The notes: a model not told the origin generated them from the sequence alone. Positions 5,354 through 53,127 are shown, counted from the first letter of the stretch. The stretch is 64,000 nucleotides of DNA from Parcubacteria group bacterium Gr01-1014_8 (GCA_007376385.1 VMGC01000003.1:32001-96000); one strand, 5' to 3'. Numbers and translations are program-made.

Positions 5354-6238
5354 CTAGCGGGCATCCAAGGACTTTTCTGCATCAATGAAGGATTGTATGT
5401 CCCCTCCGAGCACTTTTTCAACGTCCCTGCGTTCATGCTCCGTTCTGTGGTCCTTCACCAATTGATATGGATGGAGCGTGTATGAACGGATCTGACTTCC
5501 CCATTCTATCTTTGTCGAAGTGCCTGCCGAAAGTCCTCGCGCCTCCTTATCTTGTGCTTCTTGCCGCATTTTAAACAGTTTCCCTCGAAGCATTTCAAGC
5601 GCTTTTTCTCGATTTTGGAGTTGACTCCTCTCGCTCGTGACATGCACGGAGATTCCAGTCGGTTTATGTGTCATTCGCACCGCCGTGTCCCGCTTGTTCA
5701 CATTTTGTCCGCCTGGACCACCTGAACGTGCAACGGTAATTTCAAGCTCTTGCTCAGGAATGTGCGATTCGCCGACATCGGGTAATTTCGGCAATATCTC
5801 AACTAACGAAAAAGAAGTTTGCCTCTTACCTGCAGAATTAAACGGGGACATGCGGACGAGTCTATGAACGCCTGCCTCTCTTTTTAAAGCTCCGAAAACA
5901 CCGGAGCCCGCTATCTCAAACGAGACGCTTCGGTATCCTCCCATTGTATTTTGATTTGAATCAATAAGTCCTGCCTGCCATCCTTTAGATGCCGCATACT
6001 TTCCATACATTTCAAAAAGAATGCGCGAGAAATCCTCCGCATCGTCTCCCCCAGCTCCAGAAACTATCGACACTATCGCATCCCCTTTGTCGTAGCCTTC
6101 ACTCCCTGCAAGCTGTTGTTTCAAATGTTGATACTCCTTCAATATTTCCTGCGCTTTATCTTTATTGCTCCAAAAGTCCGGCGCTCTCATCGCTGTCTCA
6201 ATATCCCCAATTCTTTTTTCGATAAGTTCTTTTTGCAT
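5354..6238 (-). CDS. prfB: Peptide chain release factor 2 (N-terminally short form)
   Basis: 294 aa. SPF tripeptide (RMSPFNS) and GGQ motif ([10 protein letters not shown]). The start codon lies 2 nt from the tRNA-Thr 3' end, so there is no room for the frameshifted N-terminal exon found in canonical prfB. Confidence 0.85.
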
Positions 6239-6239
6239 A

Positions 6240-6315
6240 TGGAGCCACCTCCCGGGCTTGAACCGGGGACCTACCCCTTACGAAGGGGTTGCTCTACCAA
6301 CTGAGCTAAGGTGGC
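6240..6315 (-). tRNA. tRNA-Thr (anticodon CGU), CCA encoded
   Basis: Minus-strand sequence GCCACCTTAGCTCAGTTGGTAGAGCAACCCCTTCGTAAGGGGTAGGTCCCCGGTTCAAGCCCGGGAGGTGGCTCCA folds as a cloverleaf. Anticodon loop is TTCGTAA. Confidence 0.85.
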
Positions 6316-10493: not shown

Positions 10494-10512
10494 CTTAGTA
10501 TTCTACTACAGG

Positions 10513-10586
10513 TGCTGGGGGACGGGATCGAACCGTCGACCTAGCGCTTATGAAACGCTCGCTCTAACCGACTGAGCTACCCCAGC
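10513..10586 (-). tRNA. tRNA-Met (anticodon CAU), elongator type
   Basis: Minus-strand GCTGGGGTAGCTCAGTCGGTTAGAGCGAGCGTTTCATAAGCGCTAGGTCGACGGTTCGATCCCGTCCCCCAGCA. Position 1-72 is paired. Loop TTCATAA. Confidence 0.8.
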
Positions 10587-10817: not shown

Positions 10818-10827
10818 GCTGTACTTG

Positions 10828-10899
10828 TTGCGGGGGCGGGACTTGCACCCGCGACCTTCAGGTTATGAGCCTGACGAGCTACTACTGCTCCACCCCGCT
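10828..10899 (-). tRNA. tRNA-Met (anticodon CAU), initiator-like
   Basis: Minus-strand AGCGGGGTGGAGCAGTAGTAGCTCGTCAGGCTCATAACCTGAAGGTCGCGGGTGCAAGTCCCGCCCCCGCAA. Near-identical to the bacterial tRNA-fMet framework (GCGGGGTGGAGCAG...CTCATAACC...CCCCCGCAA) with an unpaired 1:72 position. Confidence 0.8.
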
Positions 10900-28427: not shown

Positions 28428-29072
28428 ATGATGCGTTTTTTTCGAGCCATATTTGATGCGATTCTCCCGCAAAAAGCACGGGTCGCACGAACACAGACCT
28501 ACACATTGAAAGATTTGGAGCTTTCGCCTACGACTCACGAAGCATACGGAGTACAGATAACAACGCTGATGTCATATCGAACGAAAGCAGTTGAAGATCT
28601 CATCCGCGCTTTGAAATATGACGGGGCAAAACACGCATCACATGCCCTCGCAGAAGCACTTGGAGAATATCTGCAAGAAGAGATCGCCCACATCAAGCTG
28701 TTTTCCTCAAAATCAGTGCTTCTCGTTCCTATATCCCTTCACAGTGAACGTCTTCGAGAACGCGGATTTAATCAGATAGAAGTTGTGCTCAATGCATTGC
28801 CAGAAGAATTCAAGAACGGGAAGCTCACAACTCTCTCGCCTCGTACGCTCACGCGCATTCGCAACACCCCACAACAAACAAGGCTTTCAAGAAATGAACG
28901 TCTGAAGAACGTAGAAGGTGCGTTCGCCGTTTCGGACGAAAAGACGCTTCAAGATACGCATGTCATTCTCATTGATGATGTAACAACTACCGGAGCAACG
29001 CTTTCGAGTGCGGCACAAACACTCAAGAAAACAGGAGTATCATTTTCAATGATTGCTCTCGCACGAGCATAA
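28428..29072 (+). CDS. comFC: ComF family phosphoribosyltransferase-domain protein (competence protein ComFC-like)
   Basis: 214 aa. PRTase motif VILIDDVTTTGATL. ComFC-like core. Confidence 0.75.
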   Translation: MMRFFRAIFDAILPQKARVARTQTYTLKDLELSPTTHEAYGVQITTLMSYRTKAVEDLIRALKYDGAKHASHALAEALGEYLQEEIAHIKLFSSKSVLLVPISLHSERLRERGFNQIEVVLNALPEEFKNGKLTTLSPRTLTRIRNTPQQTRLSRNERLKNVEGAFAVSDEKTLQDTHVILIDDVTTTGATLSSAAQTLKKTGVSFSMIALARA

Positions 29073-29992: not shown

Positions 29993-30081
29993 CGGAGAGG
30001 GAGGGATTCGAACCCTCGAGACAGTTTTACCCGCCTAACACGTTAGCACCGTGCCGCCTTCGACCACTCGGCCACCTCTCC
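29993..30081 (-). tRNA. tRNA-Ser (anticodon GCU), long variable arm
   Basis: Minus-strand GGAGAGGTGGCCGAGTGGTCGAAGGCGGCACGGTGCTAACGTGTTAGGCGGGTAAAACTGTCTCGAGGGTTCGAATCCCTCCCTCTCCG. Closely follows the E. coli tRNA-Ser(GCU) layout. Confidence 0.85.
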
Positions 30082-30985: not shown

Positions 30986-33154
30986 ATGAACGCCTCCGAT
31001 ACCATCACCGCGCATTTTCGCCTCACTAAGCCACAAATTGCGGCTCTCCGACGACTTGGACTAATAACTATTGCTGATATCTTGCGCCATTTTCCTGCAC
31101 GCTATGAGAGAGCCGGCGAATCATCAGACATCTCCCATTTGGTAGCGGGACAAAAAGTAACCCTCTATGGAGAGTTATCGAAACTTGAAGCAAAGCGATT
31201 ATGGAAAAGTCGCCGCACAGCAACAGAAGGTATCTTCGAAGACGCGACCGGAAAAGTGAAAGTGCTCTGGTTCAATCAACCTTACATCGCAAAAATGGCG
31301 CCGCAAATGCAGCTTGTTAAATTAACAGGTTCCGTTGCCGGCAAAAACAAACCATATATCACTAATCCTGAAATTGAGACGTTGCCACCAGGCTTCATAC
31401 CTCCGGTGCAAAGTGAAAAATTGTTCAACGTGGCACGATCTGAACCAACACCAACCTCCATTTTCCCCGTCTATCCGGAAACGCGCGGTATTACGTCTCG
31501 TTGGTTCTTTCACGCCTTGGAACGCATTTTTGGATCGAACACACATATCACGCTCGAAGATCCTCTCCCAAGTAATGTACGAGAAAGATACCACCTACCC
31601 GATCTTTCTACATCGCTTATGTGGGCGCATAAGCCGGAAAAGGAATCGCATGCAGAAGTCGCGCGAAAACGTTTTGCGTTCGAAGAAATTTTTGTGCTCA
31701 ACGTCATGCGTGCGAAAGAACGCGCAGAAAATGACGCACTGCCTTCATTTCAAATAGATAATGCAAAAGAACATGCAGTGCATTTTCTCGAAAGCGTGTC
31801 GTTCAAAGCGACGCGCGCGCAGCATGTAGCGATAGAAGACATCCTCGCTGATCTTAAGAAAAATCACCCGATGGCACGGCTCCTCGAAGGTGATGTTGGA
31901 AGCGGCAAAACCCTTGTCGCCGCAGCGACTGCATATGCGATCGTAAATTCAAGACCTCGAGGACAGACCTTCGGCACGCTCCAGGTCGGTTATATGGCGC
32001 CGACCGAGATCTTGGCAACGCAGCATTTCCAATCGTTCATCGAATATTTCCGACATCTGCCGATTAATATTGCCCTCATCACTGGTAGTGGATGTAAAAA
32101 ATTCCCGTCAAGATCCCACCCCGAAAAAGCAACAGATATCTCACGCTCGCAATTGTTGAAATGGGTAGCGAGCGGCGAAATAGCGATGCTCGTCGGGACT
32201 CATACGCTCATCCAAAAGGCGGTTCAATTCAAACACCTCGCATATGCCATCGTAGACGAACAGCATCGGTTTGGCACAAAGCAAAGGCGTGAGCTCGCAC
32301 GAAAGGGCGACAAAACGCCACATTTCCTCAGTATGACCGCAACCCCCATACCGCGCACGCTGGCCCTCACGATGTACGGCGACCTGGATCTATCCATTCT
32401 GGATGAGCTACCGCCTGGACGCGCAAAAATAACTACCCGTATCATCAAACCGAACGAACGCAGCCTTGCATACGAGGCGGTAAGAACAGAACTTGCAAAG
32501 GGAAGGCAGGCGTTCATCATTTGTCCTCGCATCGAAGAGCCTGACCCGACAAAACTGAACGCACTGCAGGCAAAGTCCGCAAAAGCAGAGGCAAAACGAT
32601 TGAAAGCAGAGATATTCCCCGAGTACCGCATAGGCCTGCTTCATGGCAGCGTGAAAACAAAAGAAAAAGACGAGGTCATGCGAAAATTCGCCGCACACGA
32701 AATAGATATCTTGGTTGCAACATCCGTCGTAGAAGTCGGCATTAACGTCCCGAACGCAACCGTCATGCTCATTGAAGGAGCTGAGCGGTTCGGACTTGCT
32801 CAGTTGCACCAATTACGCGGACGCATCATGCGTTCCTCGCATCCGCCGCTGTGTTTTCTCTTGCCTGAGAAAAAGGGCGAAATGGCAATGAAGAGGTTAA
32901 AGGCGTTAGAAAAAAGCGATAACGGATTTGAGCTCGCAGAATCAGATCTCGAGACGCGGGGCGCAGGCGATCTCATAGGACGAAAACAATGGGGCATGAC
33001 AGACCTCGGTATGGAAGCGCTGAAGAACATCAAACTCATCCGCGCTGCGCGCATCGAGGCTGCTGCGCTCATCAAAGAGGACCCCGGCCTTTCAAAGCAT
33101 TCTGCACTCAAAAACCGTGTAGCGTCCACGTCTGCGACATCACATCAAGAATAA
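30986..33154 (+). CDS. recG: ATP-dependent DNA helicase RecG
   Basis: 722 aa. N-terminal wedge/OB domain. Helicase motifs I (GDVGSGKT), II (DEQH) and VI. TRG motif region. Confidence 0.95.
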   Translation: MNASDTITAHFRLTKPQIAALRRLGLITIADILRHFPARYERAGESSDISHLVAGQKVTLYGELSKLEAKRLWKSRRTATEGIFEDATGKVKVLWFNQPYIAKMAPQMQLVKLTGSVAGKNKPYITNPEIETLPPGFIPPVQSEKLFNVARSEPTPTSIFPVYPETRGITSRWFFHALERIFGSNTHITLEDPLPSNVRERYHLPDLSTSLMWAHKPEKESHAEVARKRFAFEEIFVLNVMRAKERAENDALPSFQIDNAKEHAVHFLESVSFKATRAQHVAIEDILADLKKNHPMARLLEGDVGSGKTLVAAATAYAIVNSRPRGQTFGTLQVGYMAPTEILATQHFQSFIEYFRHLPINIALITGSGCKKFPSRSHPEKATDISRSQLLKWVASGEIAMLVGTHTLIQKAVQFKHLAYAIVDEQHRFGTKQRRELARKGDKTPHFLSMTATPIPRTLALTMYGDLDLSILDELPPGRAKITTRIIKPNERSLAYEAVRTELAKGRQAFIICPRIEEPDPTKLNALQAKSAKAEAKRLKAEIFPEYRIGLLHGSVKTKEKDEVMRKFAAHEIDILVATSVVEVGINVPNATVMLIEGAERFGLAQLHQLRGRIMRSSHPPLCFLLPEKKGEMAMKRLKALEKSDNGFELAESDLETRGAGDLIGRKQWGMTDLGMEALKNIKLIRAARIEAAALIKEDPGLSKHSALKNRVASTSATSHQE

Positions 33155-34597: not shown

Positions 34598-34936
34598 TTA
34601 AAGCTTAAAATACTTTTTAACCGCCGCAACATCCCCCGCTATCGCGGCTTTCAGGCTTTCTTCTGTATCAAATTGCGTTGTCTCCCGAATTTTTTCGCGT
34701 AGTTCGACGGAAATCTCTTTACCGTATAGATCACCGCTGAAATCAGGCAAATATGCTTCGAGCACTTTCCTTTCCTTATTCGCAAAGACGGCCGCAACAT
34801 ACGTCCTTCCATCTACGCGTACCTGAGCAGCGTAAACGCCGGAGAAATCGCCCTCAAGCGGAATATTGGCCGTAGGGAATCCAAGGGTGGCACCATACCC
34901 CTTTCCTTTTTGTACGATGCCGGAGAATTTTTTCAT
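34598..34936 (-). CDS. Riboflavin kinase domain protein
   Basis: About 112 aa from the internal Met. Motifs GYGATLGFPTANI and the E...R..E C-terminal pattern of RibF/riboflavin kinase domains. Confidence 0.65.
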   Translation of the reverse strand: MKKFSGIVQKGKGYGATLGFPTANIPLEGDFSGVYAAQVRVDGRTYVAAVFANKERKVLEAYLPDFSGDLYGKEISVELREKIRETTQFDTEESLKAAIAGDVAAVKKYFKL

Positions 34937-35182
34937 AACAATCCGCCCACAAGGACACTTTGGAAACACCACAAGAGTACTTCAGAAAATATACTCGTGC
35001 CACTCGTTATTTTCTTGGTCACACCTCAAGGGTACTTCCATTTTTCTAAGCCGGAGTACCGGCAAGAAAAATTGGTCGCCCACGGTTTTCCAACGGGCTT
35101 CGCCCTGCCTTCCTCCACGGGAAACAAAGTGTTTCCCCGACCCCCTTCCTGTCCAAGCGGGCGTCCATTCATTTCATTCATG

Positions 35183-35256
35183 TCCGCCCGCTTGGACTCG
35201 AACCAAGGACCCTCGAGGTATAAGCTCGATGCTCTAACCAACTGAGCTACGGGCGG
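35183..35256 (-). tRNA. tRNA-Ile (anticodon UAU)
   Basis: Minus-strand CCGCCCGTAGCTCAGTTGGTTAGAGCATCGAGCTTATACCTCGAGGGTCCTTGGTTCGAGTCCAAGCGGGCGGA. Anticodon stem TCGAG/CTCGA, loop CTTATAC. Confidence 0.8.
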
Positions 35257-35374: not shown

Positions 35375-36343
35375 CTAGCGTATCAACTCCGAAAGCGACT
35401 TGCCTTCGTGCAACCGTTCGATCCCCTGCGCAACGAGTTCCGCAAGAGGAAGCACCGTAATTTTCACGCGTTTTGATTTTAGAAGTTCCGGGTCATGAGG
35501 AATCGAATCGGTAACGATAACTTCATCGACGGCAGAATCGTCAAAAGCTTCAATGACCTTCCTTGGATTCGACGCGAACACGGCATGCGTTGCGTAGCAG
35601 AAGATCTTTTTTGCGCCCGCTTCTTTTGCCGCCTCTGCATCGGCAATCATCGTGCCGCCCGAATCGATTATGTCATCTACAAATAGCACGTCTTTCCCCT
35701 CAACAGAGCCGATTATTTTTATAGACTCACGCTTTACCTGTCCGGGAGCAGAACGGCTTTTAGAAAAGACCACGAAATCTTCATGCCCGAGCCTTCTGGC
35801 GTACGCTTCTGCGCGCACCGCGTTTTTATCAGGAGACGCCACGATTGAAGACTCCGAGAGAATATTTTTCAAATATGGAACCGTCACTGACGACGAATAG
35901 AGATGATCAACCATCAGAGGATGAAAAAAACCAGCGGTCGGTTCCGAATGAACGTCAAAAAGAAGTGCTCTATCGGCGCCTGAATGCGCGAGGAAATCGA
36001 TGATGACCCTTGCGCTCGTCGCGACACGCGGCCTGTCTTTGCGGTCTTGCCGATTATAGCCAAGGTAGGTGGGAACAAGCGTGATCCTTCCGGCTGACGA
36101 ATCGTGCGCGGCTTCCGCAAGAAGCACCATCTCAAGGATGTTTTCTGCAGGCGGGTTAGTCGGGTTAATGATGAATACATCCGTGTCTCGCACGTTCTCC
36201 AGTATCTGCACGCGCACCTCGCCGTCATTGAACCTCGCGACCTGTGCTTCGCCGAGCTTAATACCAAGGCGCTTACACACTGCCTCTCCCATCGCTTGCC
36301 CGGCAACTCCGGTAAATATTTTGATGGGCCTGTCGTGGTTCAT
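35375..36343 (-). CDS. prs: Ribose-phosphate pyrophosphokinase
   Basis: PRPP-binding motif (VLFVDDIIDSGGT) and Prs N-terminal domain. Start trimmed to MNHDRPIKIF. Confidence 0.9.
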   Translation of the reverse strand: MNHDRPIKIFTGVAGQAMGEAVCKRLGIKLGEAQVARFNDGEVRVQILENVRDTDVFIINPTNPPAENILEMVLLAEAAHDSSAGRITLVPTYLGYNRQDRKDRPRVATSARVIIDFLAHSGADRALLFDVHSEPTAGFFHPLMVDHLYSSSVTVPYLKNILSESSIVASPDKNAVRAEAYARRLGHEDFVVFSKSRSAPGQVKRESIKIIGSVEGKDVLFVDDIIDSGGTMIADAEAAKEAGAKKIFCYATHAVFASNPRKVIEAFDDSAVDEVIVTDSIPHDPELLKSKRVKITVLPLAELVAQGIERLHEGKSLSELIR

Positions 36344-36350
36344 GTACCCC

Positions 36351-37499
36351 TTAGCGTACCGCCTTTGCCACCTGCTTTGCAACCCGTTTATCGAACATAT
36401 CGGGGAGAATTTTTTGCGTTCCTGGTTTTTTTATGAGACCTGCAATGGCCTTCGCCGCTTTTATTTTCATCTCGTCGGTGATCCGTCTCACACGGTTGTC
36501 GAGAGCCCCGCGAAAGACTCCTGGAAACGCGAGTGAATTATTGACCTGGTTCGGGAAATCAGAGCGACCTGTTGCGATCACCTTTGCTCCTCCCTTTTTC
36601 GCTTCATCAGGCATTATCTCAGGCAACGGGTTTGCCATCGCAAAGATGATCGGGTCTCGCGCCATTTTCTTTATCATTGCTGCGTTGATAACGCCCGGTC
36701 TCGAAAGTCCCAGAAACACATCCGAATTTATGAGAGCTTTAGAAAGATCTCCTCCGCTCTCCGCAAAAATAGTCTTGTTTCTTATGAGCTCTTTCTTCGT
36801 GGAATTGAGGTCATCTCGCCCGCTCCAAACGATACCCGTACTGTCGACAGCGAGTATCTTCACTTTTGGCGCATATCGCTTCAACAGCCGCATCGTCGCA
36901 ACTCCTGCCGCACCAACGCCGCTTACCGTCAACGTGCATTTGTTCATATCTTTTTTCACGACTTTCATCGAATTGATGAGCCCTGCTAGTACGACTATTG
37001 CCGTTCCATGCTGGTCGTCATGCATGACCGGTATGTCAAGCGCGTCGATGACCCTCTGTTCGATCTCAAAACATTTCGGCGCCGCAATGTCTTCCAAGTT
37101 GATACCGCCGAATGCCGGAGCGATGCGGATCACCGTATCCACGATGGCATCCGCGTCTTGGGTATCGAGAACTATAGGTACAGCGTCGACATCTGCGAAC
37201 GTCTTAAAAAGCGCGCATTTCCCCTCCATCACAGGGAGCGCGCCCAGCGCGCCAATATTTCCCAGCCCTAGTACCGCCGATCCGTCTGATATAACGGCGA
37301 CCATGCGGCCTTTCATTGTATAGATGCGGGCATCCTGCTTATGCTTTGCTACGTGGCTGGATACCGCAGCAACACCCGGCGTATACACAAGGGATAGGTC
37401 GGCTCGATTCCTCACGGGAGCGGCCGGCAGTATTCGTATCTTTCCGCCAAGTTTCTTGTGAAGTGCGAGAGCCTTTTTGGCGTTGTCATTTTTTTTCAT
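36351..37499 (-). CDS. NAD(P)-dependent malic enzyme (short form)
   Basis: Malic-enzyme N-terminal domain (YTPGVA). NAD-binding Rossmann GVGAAG. Start trimmed to MKKNDNAKK. Confidence 0.85.
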   Translation of the reverse strand: MKKNDNAKKALALHKKLGGKIRILPAAPVRNRADLSLVYTPGVAAVSSHVAKHKQDARIYTMKGRMVAVISDGSAVLGLGNIGALGALPVMEGKCALFKTFADVDAVPIVLDTQDADAIVDTVIRIAPAFGGINLEDIAAPKCFEIEQRVIDALDIPVMHDDQHGTAIVVLAGLINSMKVVKKDMNKCTLTVSGVGAAGVATMRLLKRYAPKVKILAVDSTGIVWSGRDDLNSTKKELIRNKTIFAESGGDLSKALINSDVFLGLSRPGVINAAMIKKMARDPIIFAMANPLPEIMPDEAKKGGAKVIATGRSDFPNQVNNSLAFPGVFRGALDNRVRRITDEMKIKAAKAIAGLIKKPGTQKILPDMFDKRVAKQVAKAVR

Positions 37500-39376: not shown

Positions 39377-41368
39377 TTAAACAAGCGGCTGATGCTCGAT
39401 GTCTTCCTTCTTTTTTGGAACAATTCCGTGCGCGATGAGGATCTTTTCGAATTCTTCTCGTTCGATGGTCTCGACTTCAATGAGTTGCTTTGCGATAGCG
39501 TCCAAAACCTTGCGATATTTCTTCATGACGTCTTCTGCCCGCTTGTATGCGCCCTCGACTATCTTTTTCACTTCCGAATCTATCGCGGCTGATACTTCCT
39601 CCGATAACTCTCCGGGTTCGATACCAGCACCAAAAAGTGTCCGGCCAGGCGCAGCTTCGAGCGCGACGGGCCCCATCTTGTCCGACATACCATACTTGGT
39701 GACCATGTCGCGCGCCAGCGCTGAGAGAACCTGCAGGTCATTTGATGCTCCTGTCGTGATGTCGTTGAAGATCATCTTTTCTGCGATGTACCCGCCAAGA
39801 GAAACAGCGATATCATCCAAAAATTCCAGTTTCGATTGCATGCGTCGGTCTTCAAGCGGAAGTTTGAGCGTGTATCCTGCAGCGCGCCCGCGCGAAATGA
39901 TAGAAACTTTGTGTACGGGGTCCGCATACGTCAAGACCGACGCAATGAGCGCATGTCCCGCCTCGTGATACGCCGTTATCTCCTTCTCTTTCTTGTTAAG
40001 CACGTGGCTCCGCCTCTCTGGTCCAAGCATCACCTTCTCTATCGAACGAATGAGGTCGTATTGTGTCACTTCCTTTCTGTCCTCGCGCGCAGCAAGGATT
40101 GCAGCCTCATTCATAAGATTCGCCAAGTCCGCGCCTGAAAACCCCGGGGTTCTCTCTGCAATGACCATAAGATTCGTATCCGGCCCCATCGGTTTCTGCC
40201 TCGCGTGTATCTTGAGGATCGCTTCGCGATCCGACCTGTCCGGCAGATCGATAGTTACCCGCCTGTCGAATCGCCCGGGACGAAGCAGAGCGGGATCAAG
40301 CACGTCCGGACGGTTCGATGCCGCCATGACGATAACTTTTTCATTCGGTTCAAATCCATCCATCTCGACGAGTATTTGGTTCAACGTCTGTTCGCGCTCA
40401 TCATTTCCCCCTCCCACTCCAGAACCACGAACTCGCCCGACAGCGTCTATCTCATCCATGAACACAATGGCCGGTGCGGCTTTTTTCGCGGTTTGAAATA
40501 AGTCACGTACGCGCGAAGCGCCGACACCCACGAACATCTCCACAAATTCAGAACCGGATATTGAAAAGAAAGGAACACCTGCTTCACCCGCAACCGCTCG
40601 TGCTAAGAGCGTCTTTCCTGTTCCAGGCGCGCCCATCAAGAGAACACCCTTGGGGATACGCGCGCCTATCTGAATGAACTTTTTTGGATTCTTCAAAAAG
40701 TCGACTATCTCTGCAAGTTCCGCTTTTGCTTCTTTTGCACCGGCAACATCTGCGAACGTAACTTTTTGAACCGTATCTTCCGGAGAAATAAGACGAGCCA
40801 TCGAGCGACCAAAAGTGAATGCTTGCATGCCGGCACCCCTCACCTGCCTTGAAAGGAACCACATGATGCCAAGAAGAAGCAAAACCGGGATTAAAAGCGG
40901 CGCGAGCGTGAGAAACCAAAAGCGCGCGCCGCCCTGGTCCTGTATCTCTATCTTTATTGCCGCAATCTCCTCCGGTGAAAGTCCGTAACGCGCTAAGGTC
41001 TCGGTAAGCGGCGCCTCTCCTTCCTTCTGCGAAGTTTTTTCACTTTCATCTTTGTATGTTGCCTTGATAGTGTCACCTTCAACGGTGAGAGACACTACTT
41101 TGTCATCGCGAATGTCATTGGCAAGCTGCGATATTGCTATCTCATCCGCCCCGCTCTCAATATATTTGCGAACTGCCGAATAGCCCGCTGAAAGTACGAG
41201 AAAAACTGCGAACGCAACTGCTAGCTGCATCCAAATACCCGGTCCTTCCGACGGAGGAACGGCGGGTTTTTTCCCTTTTTTTCCGTGCAGATCGCCCGGA
41301 GTCATTTCTTCGGACATAGACAGCGCATTATACATAAATAGCTTGTCGCAGCTAGTTTGCGGCGACAA
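39377..41368 (-). CDS. ftsH: ATP-dependent zinc metalloprotease FtsH
   Basis: 663 aa. Two N-terminal TM helices. AAA+ Walker A GAPGTGKT, Walker B, second region of homology. Zn motif HEAGHAL. Confidence 0.95.
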
Positions 41369-41424: not shown

Positions 41425-41868
41425 ATGTCGCTGATAGATAACAAGCGCGGGCTCTTCGATTACTCGGTTCTTGAAGAACTCGAGGCTGGTATCGAGTTGT
41501 TTGGCTGCGAAGTGAAATCTCTTAGAAACAAACAAGGCTCCTTGAAAGGCGCTCGCGTCGTTGCGCGCGGCGGCGAAGCATATCTTGTTGGCGCTACCAT
41601 ACCTGCATGGCAAATGGCGAACGCCCCCAAGAGCTATGATCCGGAGCGACCGCGCCGATTGCTCTTAAATCAGAAGGAAATCGCCCATATTGCCTCCGCA
41701 GAGGGGGAAAAGGGATTGACAGCAGTGCCGATTTCAGTGTATAATAGAGGGCAACGATTGAAGCTCGGCATTGCTATCGCGCGCGGGAGGAAAAAAGAAG
41801 ATAAACGTCATACAATACGTGCGCGCGAGGAGGAAAGAAGGATCGAGAGAACGAAAAAGCGGAAATAG
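41425..41868 (+). CDS. smpB: SsrA-binding protein
   Basis: 147 aa. SmpB core, followed by a basic C-terminal tail. Confidence 0.9.
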   Translation: MSLIDNKRGLFDYSVLEELEAGIELFGCEVKSLRNKQGSLKGARVVARGGEAYLVGATIPAWQMANAPKSYDPERPRRLLLNQKEIAHIASAEGEKGLTAVPISVYNRGQRLKLGIAIARGRKKEDKRHTIRAREEERRIERTKKRK

Positions 41869-42159: not shown

Positions 42160-42547
42160 GGGGGTGACTGGTTTCGACAGGAAATTCAATGTGCTTGTGT
42201 GCAAGACGGAAGTGAGAACCTTCCTAAAAAATCTCAAACTCTAAGTGCAAACAAAACTGCACGGGGGGTTCTTTCGCCGATTCAGGCGAAAGACCTCGGC
42301 CTCGTTTTCGCTTAATCGCCCAAACGACCGTTCGTTCAGCGGGTACTCGATACCGTTGACGCGAGCGTCATAACCATCGAGTCCGGTTTCTATTTCACTC
42401 CGAGTAGAGACTTAAAGAAAGAGAGTTAGCCGACGTATGCTTTCGTTCATCTTCTACATACATCGGCGAATCTTCAAGATGAACTACGTCTTGTAGACGC
42501 GCCTGTGCATCATTTCTTGGACTCGAGTTCAATTCTCGACACCTCCA
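42160..42547 (+). ncRNA. ssrA: tmRNA (SsrA)
   Basis: 5' GGGGGTGACTGGTTTCGACAGG pairs with 3' ...CACCTCCA, including the G3:U70 alanine identity pair. T-arm TTCAATTCTCGA. Internal reading frame GCA AAC AAA ACT GCA ... GTT TTC GCT TAA, where the resume-codon context (GTGCAAAC) resembles E. coli (GTCGCAAAC). Lies directly downstream of smpB. Confidence 0.8.
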
Positions 42548-42604
42548 CTCGATTCGCCTCTCGCTAACGCTTGAGGCTCGCTCGTGGCAAGCCACCAGTC
42601 AATA

Positions 42605-50475: not shown

Positions 50476-53127
50476 CTACCGAGGCCGCGTTCCGGACTCC
50501 TTGGCTATGTACGAGGCAAGGCCGCCAGGTCTCGAGTAAGCGTACACGTCTTTTATTCCCATATCGTGGGCGAGCATCAAAACCATCTCTATCAATTGAC
50601 TCGAAACCGGTGCATCCGGCGTTATCACGATATCGTCCGAAGGAGTCGGATATTTGAGAAGCATGTTGTATCCAAGAGAGCTTTCGTCTTCCGGTCTGCT
50701 ATTAGGAATAACATCAACAAGTGACGCGCCCTCCCTCTGTCCGCCTTTTGGTTTCTTGTGGAATCGCATGACCGGATCATGCCCGGCATGAAGGTACTTT
50801 CGAACCTCCTCGGCATTTAGGGTACGCGTTACTTTTGGGATCGGCTTTTGCTGATAATCGGACGAGCAGATAGATATGCAGACGAGAGCATTGCCATGAG
50901 GATCGAGAACGGCAGGCGTCAATAATGCATCATAGGTCGTATGCAAGAGTGCGTTGGCTGAAAGGCTTGTGCGTGCGATCGCTATCTGCCCAAGAAGGTT
51001 ATCCTTTTCATCAGCGGCAAGAATGACAAGATGCTTCTGTATGTTCTTTTCATACTCGCTCTTCTCCGGCGAAAGATTGTCCCAGCACTGTCGGTACAAC
51101 TCATACGAGGGAGCCATCCATCGTGAATATCGGTGAAGAATGGTAAACCGGATTATCGGTTTCTGGACTCCTCGGCTCGGAGATGTGGAAACTGTGTTTT
51201 CCCACCTCCCTCGCTCTACGTCGCCGGTAAAACGACGTGCCGGCATTTTGAGAAGTCCGAATATTGATTCAAAACGCTCGTAGGGCAATGTCTTCTTCAA
51301 AACGCTCCGCTGCACTTTGCCCGTCGACGTCATCGGCAATTCGTCAGCGGAAAAAGAGGTGAGATACTTCGGCGTCTCATATGCGCTTAAGTACGCCGTG
51401 CCGAATAGAAGCGACAACTTGAGCCGACGTTTGGCCTTCTTCTCATCTGTACCCGCTTTCCAGCAAATGACCGCGCCCGCCTCTTCTCCGTAGCGCTCAT
51501 CGGGAACAGCAACAACGTACACCTGGTCGATCTCAGGAGATATCTTTTTCAAGGCATTCTCAAGAGCAACGGGCGAGATGTTAACCCCGCCCTTGATGAT
51601 GATCTCCCGCTTGCGGCCCTTCAGATAGAAGAATTTCTGCTCGCCAACGACCTTAAAATATCCGATGTCGCCCGAGAGAAAATATCCGCCTGCCTGCCGC
51701 GTCCGACCAGCGCTATATTCACGTCTTAACCATTTTCGACCAAACCCTGTTTTTAAGTTTTTCTCCCGCTGTACCGCTTCTTTCAACGATGGAAATTCTT
51801 CGTGGTGAATAATTCCTATCGGTTTATGCTTTTTGGTGTGCTCGGCGGCTATACCGTTATAATGTTGTCGCCATCGTTCATGTATATCTTGAGTTTGACC
51901 GATATAAAATGAACCATCATCACACTTGATGACATAAACATAGAACATTTCTGGTCGCGGCGCAGGCAGGTCACGGATGGCCGGCTCATTCGTAACATAC
52001 CCCTCCATAACGGCAGGCCCGCGTATCACCAGTTCACCTTCTTCTCCTTCACCGAGAAAGTTTCCTTTCTCATCCGATATCTGCACGTCGGCCCATGACA
52101 TTGCCGAGCCAATAGAATTTTCCTCTATCAGTTTCTCGTATAGACCAGGGGGCAGTCCCATAGGTACCCCGGTAACGCGAAGCGCTGTTTCAGTCTGCCC
52201 ATATCCTTGGTAGAGCGGAATATCGAATTTCGTCATGAACTCTTGCATCGTATGCACGACCACAGGAGCCGAGCCTATTTGGATGCGATTGAGCCGCAAT
52301 CCTTTTTTAACGAGCGCGTAACTCTCGGAGCGTCCTACTTGATCGAACAGGATGGATTGCACTATTGATGTGCAGGTTGCCTGACTTTTCGCAGCCTGCT
52401 GCCAGAAATGTGAGTTTGAGTAATTCGGCGTGATCGCAATGCTGCCGCCTGCGAGAAGCGCCGACAGGCAAAATGTGGTGGAATTTATGTGGTGCAACGG
52501 GAGGTTTACCAGAAACCTGTCTTCTTCTGTCATGTGAAGCCATTCCTTGATGCCTTCTGCGTTCACAACAAGGTTATTGAGAGTCAGTTTTGCTCCTTTT
52601 GGATACCCTGTAGTCCCTGATGTAAATAAAATAAGGGCACAATGTGAAAGACCGGATTCCCAGGCTACCGGTCTATCTGTAATATCGGCAAATCCCGCAA
52701 ATTCCTGGACTTTGACTTCTTTCAAAAAAATACTCTCAATATTTTTAAGCGCCTCCTTTTCTGCTATCAATAATGTTGCGTTGTTTATTTTTAATTTGTA
52801 TTGATACAACTCGCCGGTATCTCGCTTAGTATCGAGTGGAACAGTTACGACTCCGATACTCCACGCAGCCCAGCTTATTATGAGGAGTTCGGGCGAATTC
52901 TTAAATGCGAGAGCTACTCTATCGCCTCGTTTGATATCAAGCGCGTATAAATAGAGCGCAGCCTGTTTGATTTTCTGCAGCAATTCTTTGTACGTGATCT
53001 CCCCCGAGATCGTTCCTTCGTGATCACACGAGAGGAGCGCGACTTTTCCCGGATTCTTTTGCGAGAGAGCAGAAATGTGCGAGTAGAGGCTTTGTATGGA
53101 AGCATGCTGCATAACAATCATCCTCAA
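50476..53127 (-). CDS. Multidomain protein: AMP-binding (acyl-CoA synthetase-like) enzyme with an inserted YhbQ-type GIY-YIG domain and an uncharacterised C-terminal domain
   Basis: 883 aa in one frame. Adenylate-forming motifs LFTSGTTGYPKGAKL (A3), YGQTE (A5), ...SGDIGYF (A8) and PMTSTGKVQR (A10). Residues about 386-478 (FYVYVIKCDDGSFYIGQTQDIHERWRQH...EFPSLKEAVQREKNLK) match the GIY-YIG/YhbQ fold and sit exactly at the N/C-domain hinge. Residues about 620-883 have no known motif. Confidence 0.7.
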   Translation of the reverse strand: MRMIVMQHASIQSLYSHISALSQKNPGKVALLSCDHEGTISGEITYKELLQKIKQAALYLYALDIKRGDRVALAFKNSPELLIISWAAWSIGVVTVPLDTKRDTGELYQYKLKINNATLLIAEKEALKNIESIFLKEVKVQEFAGFADITDRPVAWESGLSHCALILFTSGTTGYPKGAKLTLNNLVVNAEGIKEWLHMTEEDRFLVNLPLHHINSTTFCLSALLAGGSIAITPNYSNSHFWQQAAKSQATCTSIVQSILFDQVGRSESYALVKKGLRLNRIQIGSAPVVVHTMQEFMTKFDIPLYQGYGQTETALRVTGVPMGLPPGLYEKLIEENSIGSAMSWADVQISDEKGNFLGEGEEGELVIRGPAVMEGYVTNEPAIRDLPAPRPEMFYVYVIKCDDGSFYIGQTQDIHERWRQHYNGIAAEHTKKHKPIGIIHHEEFPSLKEAVQREKNLKTGFGRKWLRREYSAGRTRQAGGYFLSGDIGYFKVVGEQKFFYLKGRKREIIIKGGVNISPVALENALKKISPEIDQVYVVAVPDERYGEEAGAVICWKAGTDEKKAKRRLKLSLLFGTAYLSAYETPKYLTSFSADELPMTSTGKVQRSVLKKTLPYERFESIFGLLKMPARRFTGDVERGRWENTVSTSPSRGVQKPIIRFTILHRYSRWMAPSYELYRQCWDNLSPEKSEYEKNIQKHLVILAADEKDNLLGQIAIARTSLSANALLHTTYDALLTPAVLDPHGNALVCISICSSDYQQKPIPKVTRTLNAEEVRKYLHAGHDPVMRFHKKPKGGQREGASLVDVIPNSRPEDESSLGYNMLLKYPTPSDDIVITPDAPVSSQLIEMVLMLAHDMGIKDVYAYSRPGGLASYIAKESGTRPR

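Follow-up and report, generated by a model that had tools for sequence, protein, structure and literature searches.

Description of the locus

The stretch of DNA analyzed here (the window, 64 000 nucleotides in length) comes from Parcubacteria group bacterium Gr01-1014_8 (NCBI taxid 2017174); coordinates given without a locus name refer to it. Seven RNA genes were identified in the window using ARAGORN, comprising six tRNAs and one tmRNA. One of them is a tRNA-Ile gene with the anticodon UAU, located on the minus strand at 35183–35256. The gene immediately upstream on the same strand, at a distance of 118 bp, is prs (ribose-phosphate diphosphokinase; 35375–36382, minus strand; NCBIfam). Two genes served as synteny anchors: ftsH (39377–41368, minus strand; NCBIfam TIGR01241, 785 bits), which is divergent from smpB (41425–41868, plus strand; NCBIfam SmpB) in an arrangement that is conserved in relatives, and recG (30986–33154, plus strand; NCBIfam RecG). 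A promoter and terminator scan around the tRNA-Ile gene gave nothing above chance; it recognized no consensus promoter in the interval that separates the gene from prs, so that co-transcription with prs is possible. Also beside the tRNA, at 34598–34972 on the minus strand, is a gene for only the flavokinase (C-terminal) half of RibF (112–124 residues). In E. coli ribF lies directly upstream of ileS; the adjacency of the RibF half to the tRNA-Ile gene is not conserved in relatives and may be a coincidence.

The contig was extended by 10 kb to the right and ∼1.6 kb to the left, which added a ribosomal-protein operon. The same organism is represented in an ENA assembly (k139_135950, 90.7 kb; window coordinate = record coordinate + 10611) and in a Logan assembly. 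The window FtsH is 100% identical to the FtsH protease recorded for Parcubacteria group bacterium Gr01-1014_8, which is encoded on a 133 kb contig. The nearest named relatives of the window FtsH are metagenome-assembled genomes (MAGs) of Candidatus Kaiserbacteria, Paceibacterota and Minisyncoccia (77–92% identity), and the host is a Kaiserbacteria-like member of the Parcubacteria (CPR/Patescibacteria). The gene content of the window, with type IV pilus genes, a VirD4/TraG-like coupling protein and sparse metabolism, fits a CPR bacterium. A placement in the Saccharibacteria, suggested by some MAG labels and a weak PamR match, was rejected in view of the 100% FtsH match, the named near relatives (Kaiserbacteria/Paceibacterota) and the different labels carried by near-identical loci. 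Two such loci, L006 and L007, are labeled ‘Candidatus Saccharibacteria’ and ‘Candidatus Paceibacterota’, respectively, despite near-identical tRNA-Ile and tmRNA tags. NCBI organism labels are thus unreliable for clade placement, since closely related loci carry conflicting ones.

The tRNA-Ile(UAU) gene

The tRNA forms a perfect cloverleaf with stems of 7, 4, 5 and 5 bp and has U33, the anticodon UAU, A37 and A73, with a seven-nucleotide anticodon loop (CUUAUAC). Read directly from the sequence, its 5′ half is CCGCCCG UA GCUC AGUUGGUUA GAGC A UCGAG CUUAUAC CUCGA, which is followed by GGGUC CUUGG UUCGAGU CCAAG CGGGCGG A. The acceptor stem opens with an unusual C1–G72 pair and contains C4–G69, and U12–A23 is present in the D stem. 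ARAGORN reports the gene as tRNA-Ile(tat) at 35182–35256 on the minus strand, and the Rfam family RF00005 matches 35183–35256 on the same strand with 70.4 bits (E = 2.4e-13), above the gathering score of 29. ARAGORN, Rfam and direct reading therefore agree on the UAU cloverleaf with loop CTTATAC that the original prediction had placed here, and 62 distinct homologous sequences support the assignment. The TAT anticodon is identical in the independent ENA assembly of the same organism (loci L001 and L003). The 3′-terminal CCA is not encoded in the window copy and is encoded in only about six of the 62 sequences.

Two Rfam families that are described as plastid untranslated regions match tRNA genes of the window in antisense. 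RF04354 (Plastid-ycf2 5′UTR) matches the strand opposite the tRNA-Ile(UAU) gene (35182–35256, plus strand), and RF04351 (Plastid-psbI-rps4 3′UTR) that opposite tRNA-Ser(GCU) (29993–30046, plus strand). The RF04354 consensus is obtained by reverse-complementing plastid trnI-CAU, so that these ‘cis-regulatory’ families consist largely of tRNA genes read in antisense.

Conservation of the tRNA in relatives

Relatives were collected around the two anchors. The recG-anchored set, with one genome per GTDB species, comprises 12 CPR relatives, the ten closest of which have RecG proteins that are 51–58% identical to that of the window. Nine of these ten carry tRNA-Ile(tat) beside or near recG, and in the tenth the contig stops before the site. 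The ftsH-anchored set consists of 80 JGI metagenome loci with FtsH 62–89% identical to the window protein. Here, tRNA-Ile(tat) was found in 56 loci, 41–6191 bp downstream of ftsH, among them every one of the 42 loci with 3 kb or more of sequence beyond ftsH; the 24 loci without it all end less than 3 kb from ftsH.

The relatives yielded 62 distinct tRNA-Ile(UAU) sequences. When these are laid on the standard cloverleaf, 99.7% of the 1302 base-pair cells are Watson–Crick or G–U, and sliding the 3′ partners as a control lowers pairing to 29–47%. Changes on both sides of a pair (compensatory changes) occur at 17 of the 21 pairs and in all four stems. The covariation score is 0.711, compared with 0.175 in shuffled alignments, none of 500 of which scored as high. 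C32, U33, U34, A35, U36, A37 and A73 are invariant in all 62 sequences. The comparison shows that the members of a deep clade share this tRNA-Ile(UAU), with its sequence, structure and place in the genome preserved. Judged by this pattern, it is a genuine tRNA under selection and, as far as the sampled loci represent the group, a clade-wide feature of Kaiserbacteria-like Parcubacteria.

Isoleucine identity and origin

The isoleucine identity elements of E. coli, reportedly described by Nureki in 1994, are said to be A73, C4–G69, U12–A23, A38 and C29–G41. A73 and U12–A23 are present in 62 of 62 tRNA-Ile(UAU) sequences and C4–G69 in 58, the window copy included. The remaining two elements differ: position 38 is C (56 sequences) or U (six), and pair 29–41 is variable (G–C in 31, C–G in 25, A–U in three and U–A in three), being G–C in the window. 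This mismatch weakens the isoleucine identity only slightly, because A38 and C29–G41 are specific to E. coli.

Scored in antisense against RF04354, the UAU tRNA of the window reaches 41.3 bits, compared with 24.1 bits for the elongator-type and 16.1 bits for the initiator-type CAU tRNA of the window. In a related locus that has both kinds of gene near ftsH (L098), the UAU tRNA scores 35.8 bits and the CAU tRNA 26.1 bits. As measured with this single model derived from plastid trnI-CAU, the scores hint that the body of tRNA-Ile(UAU) may be Ile2-like. They would fit an origin from tRNA-Ile2(CAU) by a change of C34 to U, a model that has been proposed previously (PMC3575796).

AUA usage and meaning

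The codon ATA occurs 399 times among the 18 386 codons of 55 window coding sequences (CDS), i.e. at 21.7 per 1000 codons and as 33.5% of isoleucine codons, and it is present in 54 of the 55 CDS. The GC3 of these CDS is 0.51, and the ATA share is about that predicted by neutral base composition; with usage near this expectation, AUA is not avoided. In the adjacent ribosomal-protein genes, 27 of 86 isoleucine codons are ATA, and the median ATA share of isoleucine codons in 78 related loci (GC content 30–59%) is 0.25.

The meaning of the codon was read from protein alignments. At the positions of the window FtsH that are encoded by ATA, an alignment of 87 sequences contains ATT or ATC in 53%, ATA in 24%, valine in 16% and methionine in 0.1%; the ATG positions, by contrast, align to methionine in 55%. 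RecG gives the same picture, such that for the two proteins ATA positions align to methionine at 0.1–1.2% and ATG positions at 38–55%. On these alignments, AUA is a standard and frequent isoleucine codon and not a methionine codon. Such frequent use calls for efficient decoding, and by its anticodon tRNA-Ile(UAU) is the obvious candidate for this role in the host.

CAU tRNAs of the window

ARAGORN reports two tRNA(cat) genes in the window, at 10511–10586 and 10827–10899. The latter (10828–10899, minus strand; Rfam 60.8 bits) is of the initiator type, with an A1×A72 mismatch, A11–U24 and the pairs G30–C40 and G31–C39 at the base of the anticodon stem. Pair 29–41 is A–U, which leaves two rather than three G–C pairs; bacterial initiator tRNAs usually have C1×A72 and three G–C pairs at this site. 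The other tRNA (10513–10586, minus strand; Rfam 69.3 bits) is of the elongator type with a fully paired acceptor stem and has G4–C69, as opposed to the C4–G69 that is kept in the UAU family. This pair and the low RF04354 score make it most likely to be tRNA-Met rather than tRNA-Ile2. With a permissive threshold (E ≤ 0.1), Rfam detected no further tRNA anywhere in the window. ARAGORN, Rfam and the sequences themselves therefore uphold the count of two CAU tRNAs, of which one is of the initiator and the other of the elongator type, and the absence of a third CAU tRNA within the 64 kb window. Two CAU tRNAs in 64 kb do not, however, imply that tRNA-Ile(CAU) or TilS is lacking, as a window cannot show the absence of a gene from a genome; judging from the near-complete contigs of relatives (0.55–0.86 Mb), this one is probably less than 10% of the host genome.

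Search for the lysidine system

Apart from a few published exceptions, TilS is regarded as an essential protein that nearly all bacteria have, and it has been suggested as a target for antibacterial drugs. In ∼77 kb of the host genome (the window and ∼13 kb of flanks), neither tilS nor ileS was found, and there was no third CAU tRNA. The search was extended to ∼110 related loci (∼1.3 Mb), which are concentrated around recG and ftsH. ORFs with the PP-loop motif SGGxDS were absent from the window, flanks and related loci apart from one evidently spurious case, and phmmer searches with E. coli TilS and IleRS against the window and all related loci gave no match. Pfam and NCBIfam annotation of essentially all window genes revealed no PF01171 domain, and annotation of the window and its flanks revealed no tilS. 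A gene at 28428–29072 that was considered as an hpt remnant of a TilS/HprT fusion proved to be ComF.

In the cultured CPR bacterium Southlakia epibionticum ML1, tilS lies directly upstream of ftsH and is essential in Tn-seq; the genome has three CAU tRNAs and a single gene annotated as tRNA-Ile, i.e. a canonical system (PMC10633639 supplement). In the clade studied here, tilS was not found beside ftsH in ∼90 loci. The nearest conserved gene upstream of ftsH is smpB, on the opposite strand and directly adjacent in most relatives whose contigs reach that far. Two loci have room for additional ORFs between ftsH and smpB, and the ORFs examined there as possible tilS genes encode patatin-like and GtrA-like proteins in one case and a CHAP-domain protein in the other. 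The tilS-less neighborhood of ftsH fits a loss of the gene, but its relocation would leave the same picture.

Proposed decoding of AUA

CCA would be added to the transcript post-transcriptionally by a CCA-adding enzyme, a step proposed because CCA is not encoded, and A37 would probably carry t6A, as in other tRNAs that read ANN codons. IleRS would charge the tRNA through A73, C4–G69, U12–A23 and the anticodon. Enzymes adapted to U34 have Arg or Lys at the position of E. coli Trp905 or are IleRSs of the eukaryotic type. On the ribosome, U34 would pair with the A of AUA. Along the lines suggested for Mycoplasma mobile, misreading of AUG may be limited by one or more of three factors: competition with tRNA-Met, ribosome properties and the loop context provided by the conserved C32 and C38. 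Speculatively, the invariant C32 together with C or U at position 38 is a candidate tuning element against AUG. The original prediction held that a UAU anticodon requires a modification of U34 to avoid misreading AUG. This does not hold for M. mobile, in which U34 is unmodified and the ribosome prevents AUG misreading, with discrimination relying on both the cognate ribosome and competing tRNA-Met (PMC3575796).

Alternative explanations

Could the gene be a relic or an artefact, i.e. a pseudogene or a tRNA-Ile2(CAU) or tRNA-Met gene in which a sequencing or assembly error turned C34 into T? Nothing specific favors this beyond the fact that bacteria as a whole rarely have TAT anticodons. TAT is found in all 62 distinct sequences, which come from independent samples, the independent ENA assembly concurs, and conservation, covariation and the invariant anticodon together rule out that the gene is a pseudogene, that its cloverleaf arose by chance or that a C was misread as T; we regard this as the least probable of the explanations, with a chance close to nil. 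The original prediction had named a pseudogene or negligible AUA usage as grounds for refuting it, and both fall away given compensatory changes in all four stems, ATA at a third of isoleucine codons and its presence in 54 of 55 CDS. It is also very improbable that the tRNA is charged with methionine or another amino acid and that AUA no longer means isoleucine, as in many mitochondria. The anticodons UAU and CAU differ by a single base and C38 departs from the E. coli isoleucine set, but A73, C4–G69 and U12–A23 are retained, and the FtsH and RecG positions encoded by ATA align to isoleucine (ATT/ATC), ATA and valine and hardly ever to methionine, whereas ATG positions do so frequently.

The explanation that carries the most weight beside replacement is that tilS and tRNA-Ile(CAU) are kept elsewhere in the genome and that tRNA-Ile(UAU) is a second reader of AUA, in what has been called a ‘transition state’. 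The tilS search covered ∼77 kb of the host genome, and another CPR bacterium, S. epibionticum, does have TilS and requires it. Co-occurrence of tilS and tRNA-Ile(UAU) is documented in Lactobacillus casei, Cyanothece PCC 7424 and Ferrimonas balearica (PMC3575796), but these are sporadic species and not deep clades. Two relatives have an additional, unclassified CAU tRNA immediately upstream of ftsH (L090, 1832–1905, plus strand; L098, 2439–2512, plus strand), such that in L098 ftsH is flanked by a CAU and a UAU tRNA; on the trnI-CAU-derived model, however, the L098 CAU tRNA scores below its UAU neighbor (26 versus 36 bits). Redundant tRNA systems would be unexpected in strongly reduced genomes, AUA is at its neutral expectation even in ribosomal-protein genes, and the ∼90 ftsH neighborhoods are devoid of an adjacent tilS. 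We therefore consider a redundant decoder to be unlikely, although it deserves to be taken seriously. The reading that we prefer, to which we assign a probability of about 0.65, is that the UAU tRNA has replaced the ancestral system of tilS and lysidine-modified tRNA-Ile(CAU) in this clade and does not merely supplement it. This weighting reflects clade-wide conservation, genome reduction and unsuppressed AUA usage on one side and the near-universality of TilS on the other.

Comparison with known systems

The kind of system is already known, from M. mobile and the hemoplasmas, from Bifidobacterium and Neorickettsia, and from the cases of coexistence. Nine species in three clades were known as of 2013 to lack tilS and to have tRNA-Ile(TAT) (Taniguchi et al., 2013; PMC3575796), and clade-wide UAU tRNAs (hemoplasmas/M. 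mobile, Bifidobacterium and Neorickettsia) accompany tilS loss (PMC3575796). In tRNADB-CE, TAT tDNAs were counted in 19 bacterial species in 2013–2014, in addition to 371 distinct metagenomic ones (PMC4013482; PMC3575796).

The closest counterpart is tRNA-Ile2(UAU) of M. mobile, also found in M. haemofelis and M. suis (PMC3575796), which likewise has an encoded UAU anticodon, A37, a role in decoding AUA, a reduced host genome and an Ile2-like body. Loss of tilS, unmodified U34, Arg865 of IleRS and ribosomal rejection of AUG have been demonstrated experimentally for M. mobile. M. mobile belongs to the Tenericutes and the present host to the CPR/Parcubacteria, the clade is far broader (FtsH identity to the window down to 62%) and AUA is a major codon here at ∼50% GC. 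Bifidobacterium and Neorickettsia, which have no tilS, share a clade-wide tRNA-Ile(TAT) gene (PMC3575796); their IleRS is of a eukaryotic type that was acquired horizontally, and the window and related loci contain no ileS for comparison. L. casei, Cyanothece PCC 7424 and F. balearica also have a tRNA-Ile(TAT) gene, and the present host would be in the same state if tilS lies elsewhere in its genome; there, however, the gene is sporadic at the species level, whereas here it is syntenic and conserved across a deep clade.

The canonical lysidine system of E. coli and S. epibionticum performs the same task of reading AUA as isoleucine without reading AUG, but does so with a CAU anticodon; with UAU, lysidine would not be needed. 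S. epibionticum has tilS upstream of ftsH and three CAU tRNAs, whereas the window has smpB at this site and two CAU tRNAs. AUA is also read without a modified cytidine, by tRNA-Ile with U34 or pseudouridine-34, in Nanoarchaeum equitans, in Korarchaeum and in eukaryotes (ΨAΨ). The Bacillus subtilis suppressor of tilS, tRNA-Ile1(G34U), is another U34 reader of AUA, but is a laboratory suppressor (PMC3919564). These archaeal, eukaryotic and suppressor decoders have different tRNA bodies and synthetases.

A deep CPR/Parcubacteria clade with a syntenic, universally conserved tRNA-Ile(UAU) and with AUA as a major codon appears to be unreported; full-text literature searches returned nothing linking CPR lineages with tilS, lysidine or UAU. 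A ‘lysidine synthase’ in the supplement of one CPR paper was set aside as mis-annotated and from a different Patescibacterium. In its broader form, which we hold to be fairly probable but slightly less so than replacement as such, our reading is that Kaiserbacteria and their relatives are a species-rich lineage that lost both tilS and tRNA-Ile(CAU) and reads AUA solely with the syntenic tRNA-Ile(UAU). The sampled members of this lineage have FtsH proteins 62–92% identical to that of the window and come from groundwater, soil, sediment and wastewater metagenomes. If this is correct, AUA decoding without lysidine would have arisen independently in bacteria for a fourth time, in a lineage much larger and deeper than any of the others and the first with AUA as a major codon at ∼50% GC. 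The lineage would also have a clade-specific answer to AUG misreading, for example the loop with C32 and C/U38, an unusual CPR ribosome or an adapted IleRS. How cells distinguish AUA from AUG is a long-standing question about the genetic code, and few exceptions to TilS have been published. A deep and environmentally abundant CPR clade that relies on tRNA-Ile(UAU) and encodes a third of its isoleucines by AUA would be a natural test bed for the adaptation of IleRS and the ribosome to an anticodon composed entirely of A and U with U34. There would be consequences for marker-gene estimates of completeness (TIGR02432, a model of the TilS N-terminal domain, is one of the GTDB bac120 markers), for tRNA annotation in CPR genomes and for the expression of CPR genes in E. 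coli, in which AUA is rare.

Other features of the window and related loci

Several further features were noted during annotation. Three related loci contain a well-formed class II tRNA-Ser with the anticodon ACU, i.e. with A34 (loop UUACUAA): L011 (8670–8755, plus strand), L070 (17963–18050, plus strand) and L082 (15095–15184, minus strand). In each it adjoins a normal tRNA-Ser(GCU), and the three copies differ from one another by compensatory changes in the stems. To our knowledge, anticodons that start with A, other than ACG, are very rare in bacteria. This tRNA-Ser could also read AGA if A34 were deaminated to inosine.

The tag encoded by the tmRNA of the window (42160–42548, plus strand), ANKTARGVLSPIQAKDLGLVFA, is long and atypical and has VFA in place of LAA at its end; the tags of relatives are quite different, for example AKSVASPYFSANQFSFAYARA. 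Release factor 2 (5354–6238, minus strand) has 294 residues that cover positions 111–350 of the 353 of the prfB profile and is without the N-terminal domain 1. Its start abuts a tRNA-Thr(CGU) gene (6240–6315), so that a frameshifted N-terminal exon could not be accommodated, and the same 294-residue gene is called in the independent assembly (L118). Some FtsH homologues of the clade, ∼1090–1105 residues in length (P0006, P0025 and P0037), contain an intein domain (PF14890), which the window FtsH does not have. At 50476–53127 on the minus strand, the window encodes an 883-residue AMP-binding (acyl/aryl-CoA ligase-like) protein in which an in-frame insertion, a GIY-YIG nuclease domain, separates the AMP-binding domain from AMP-binding_C, and a free-standing GIY-YIG gene of 85 residues lies ∼12 kb from it (L116, 8340–8597).
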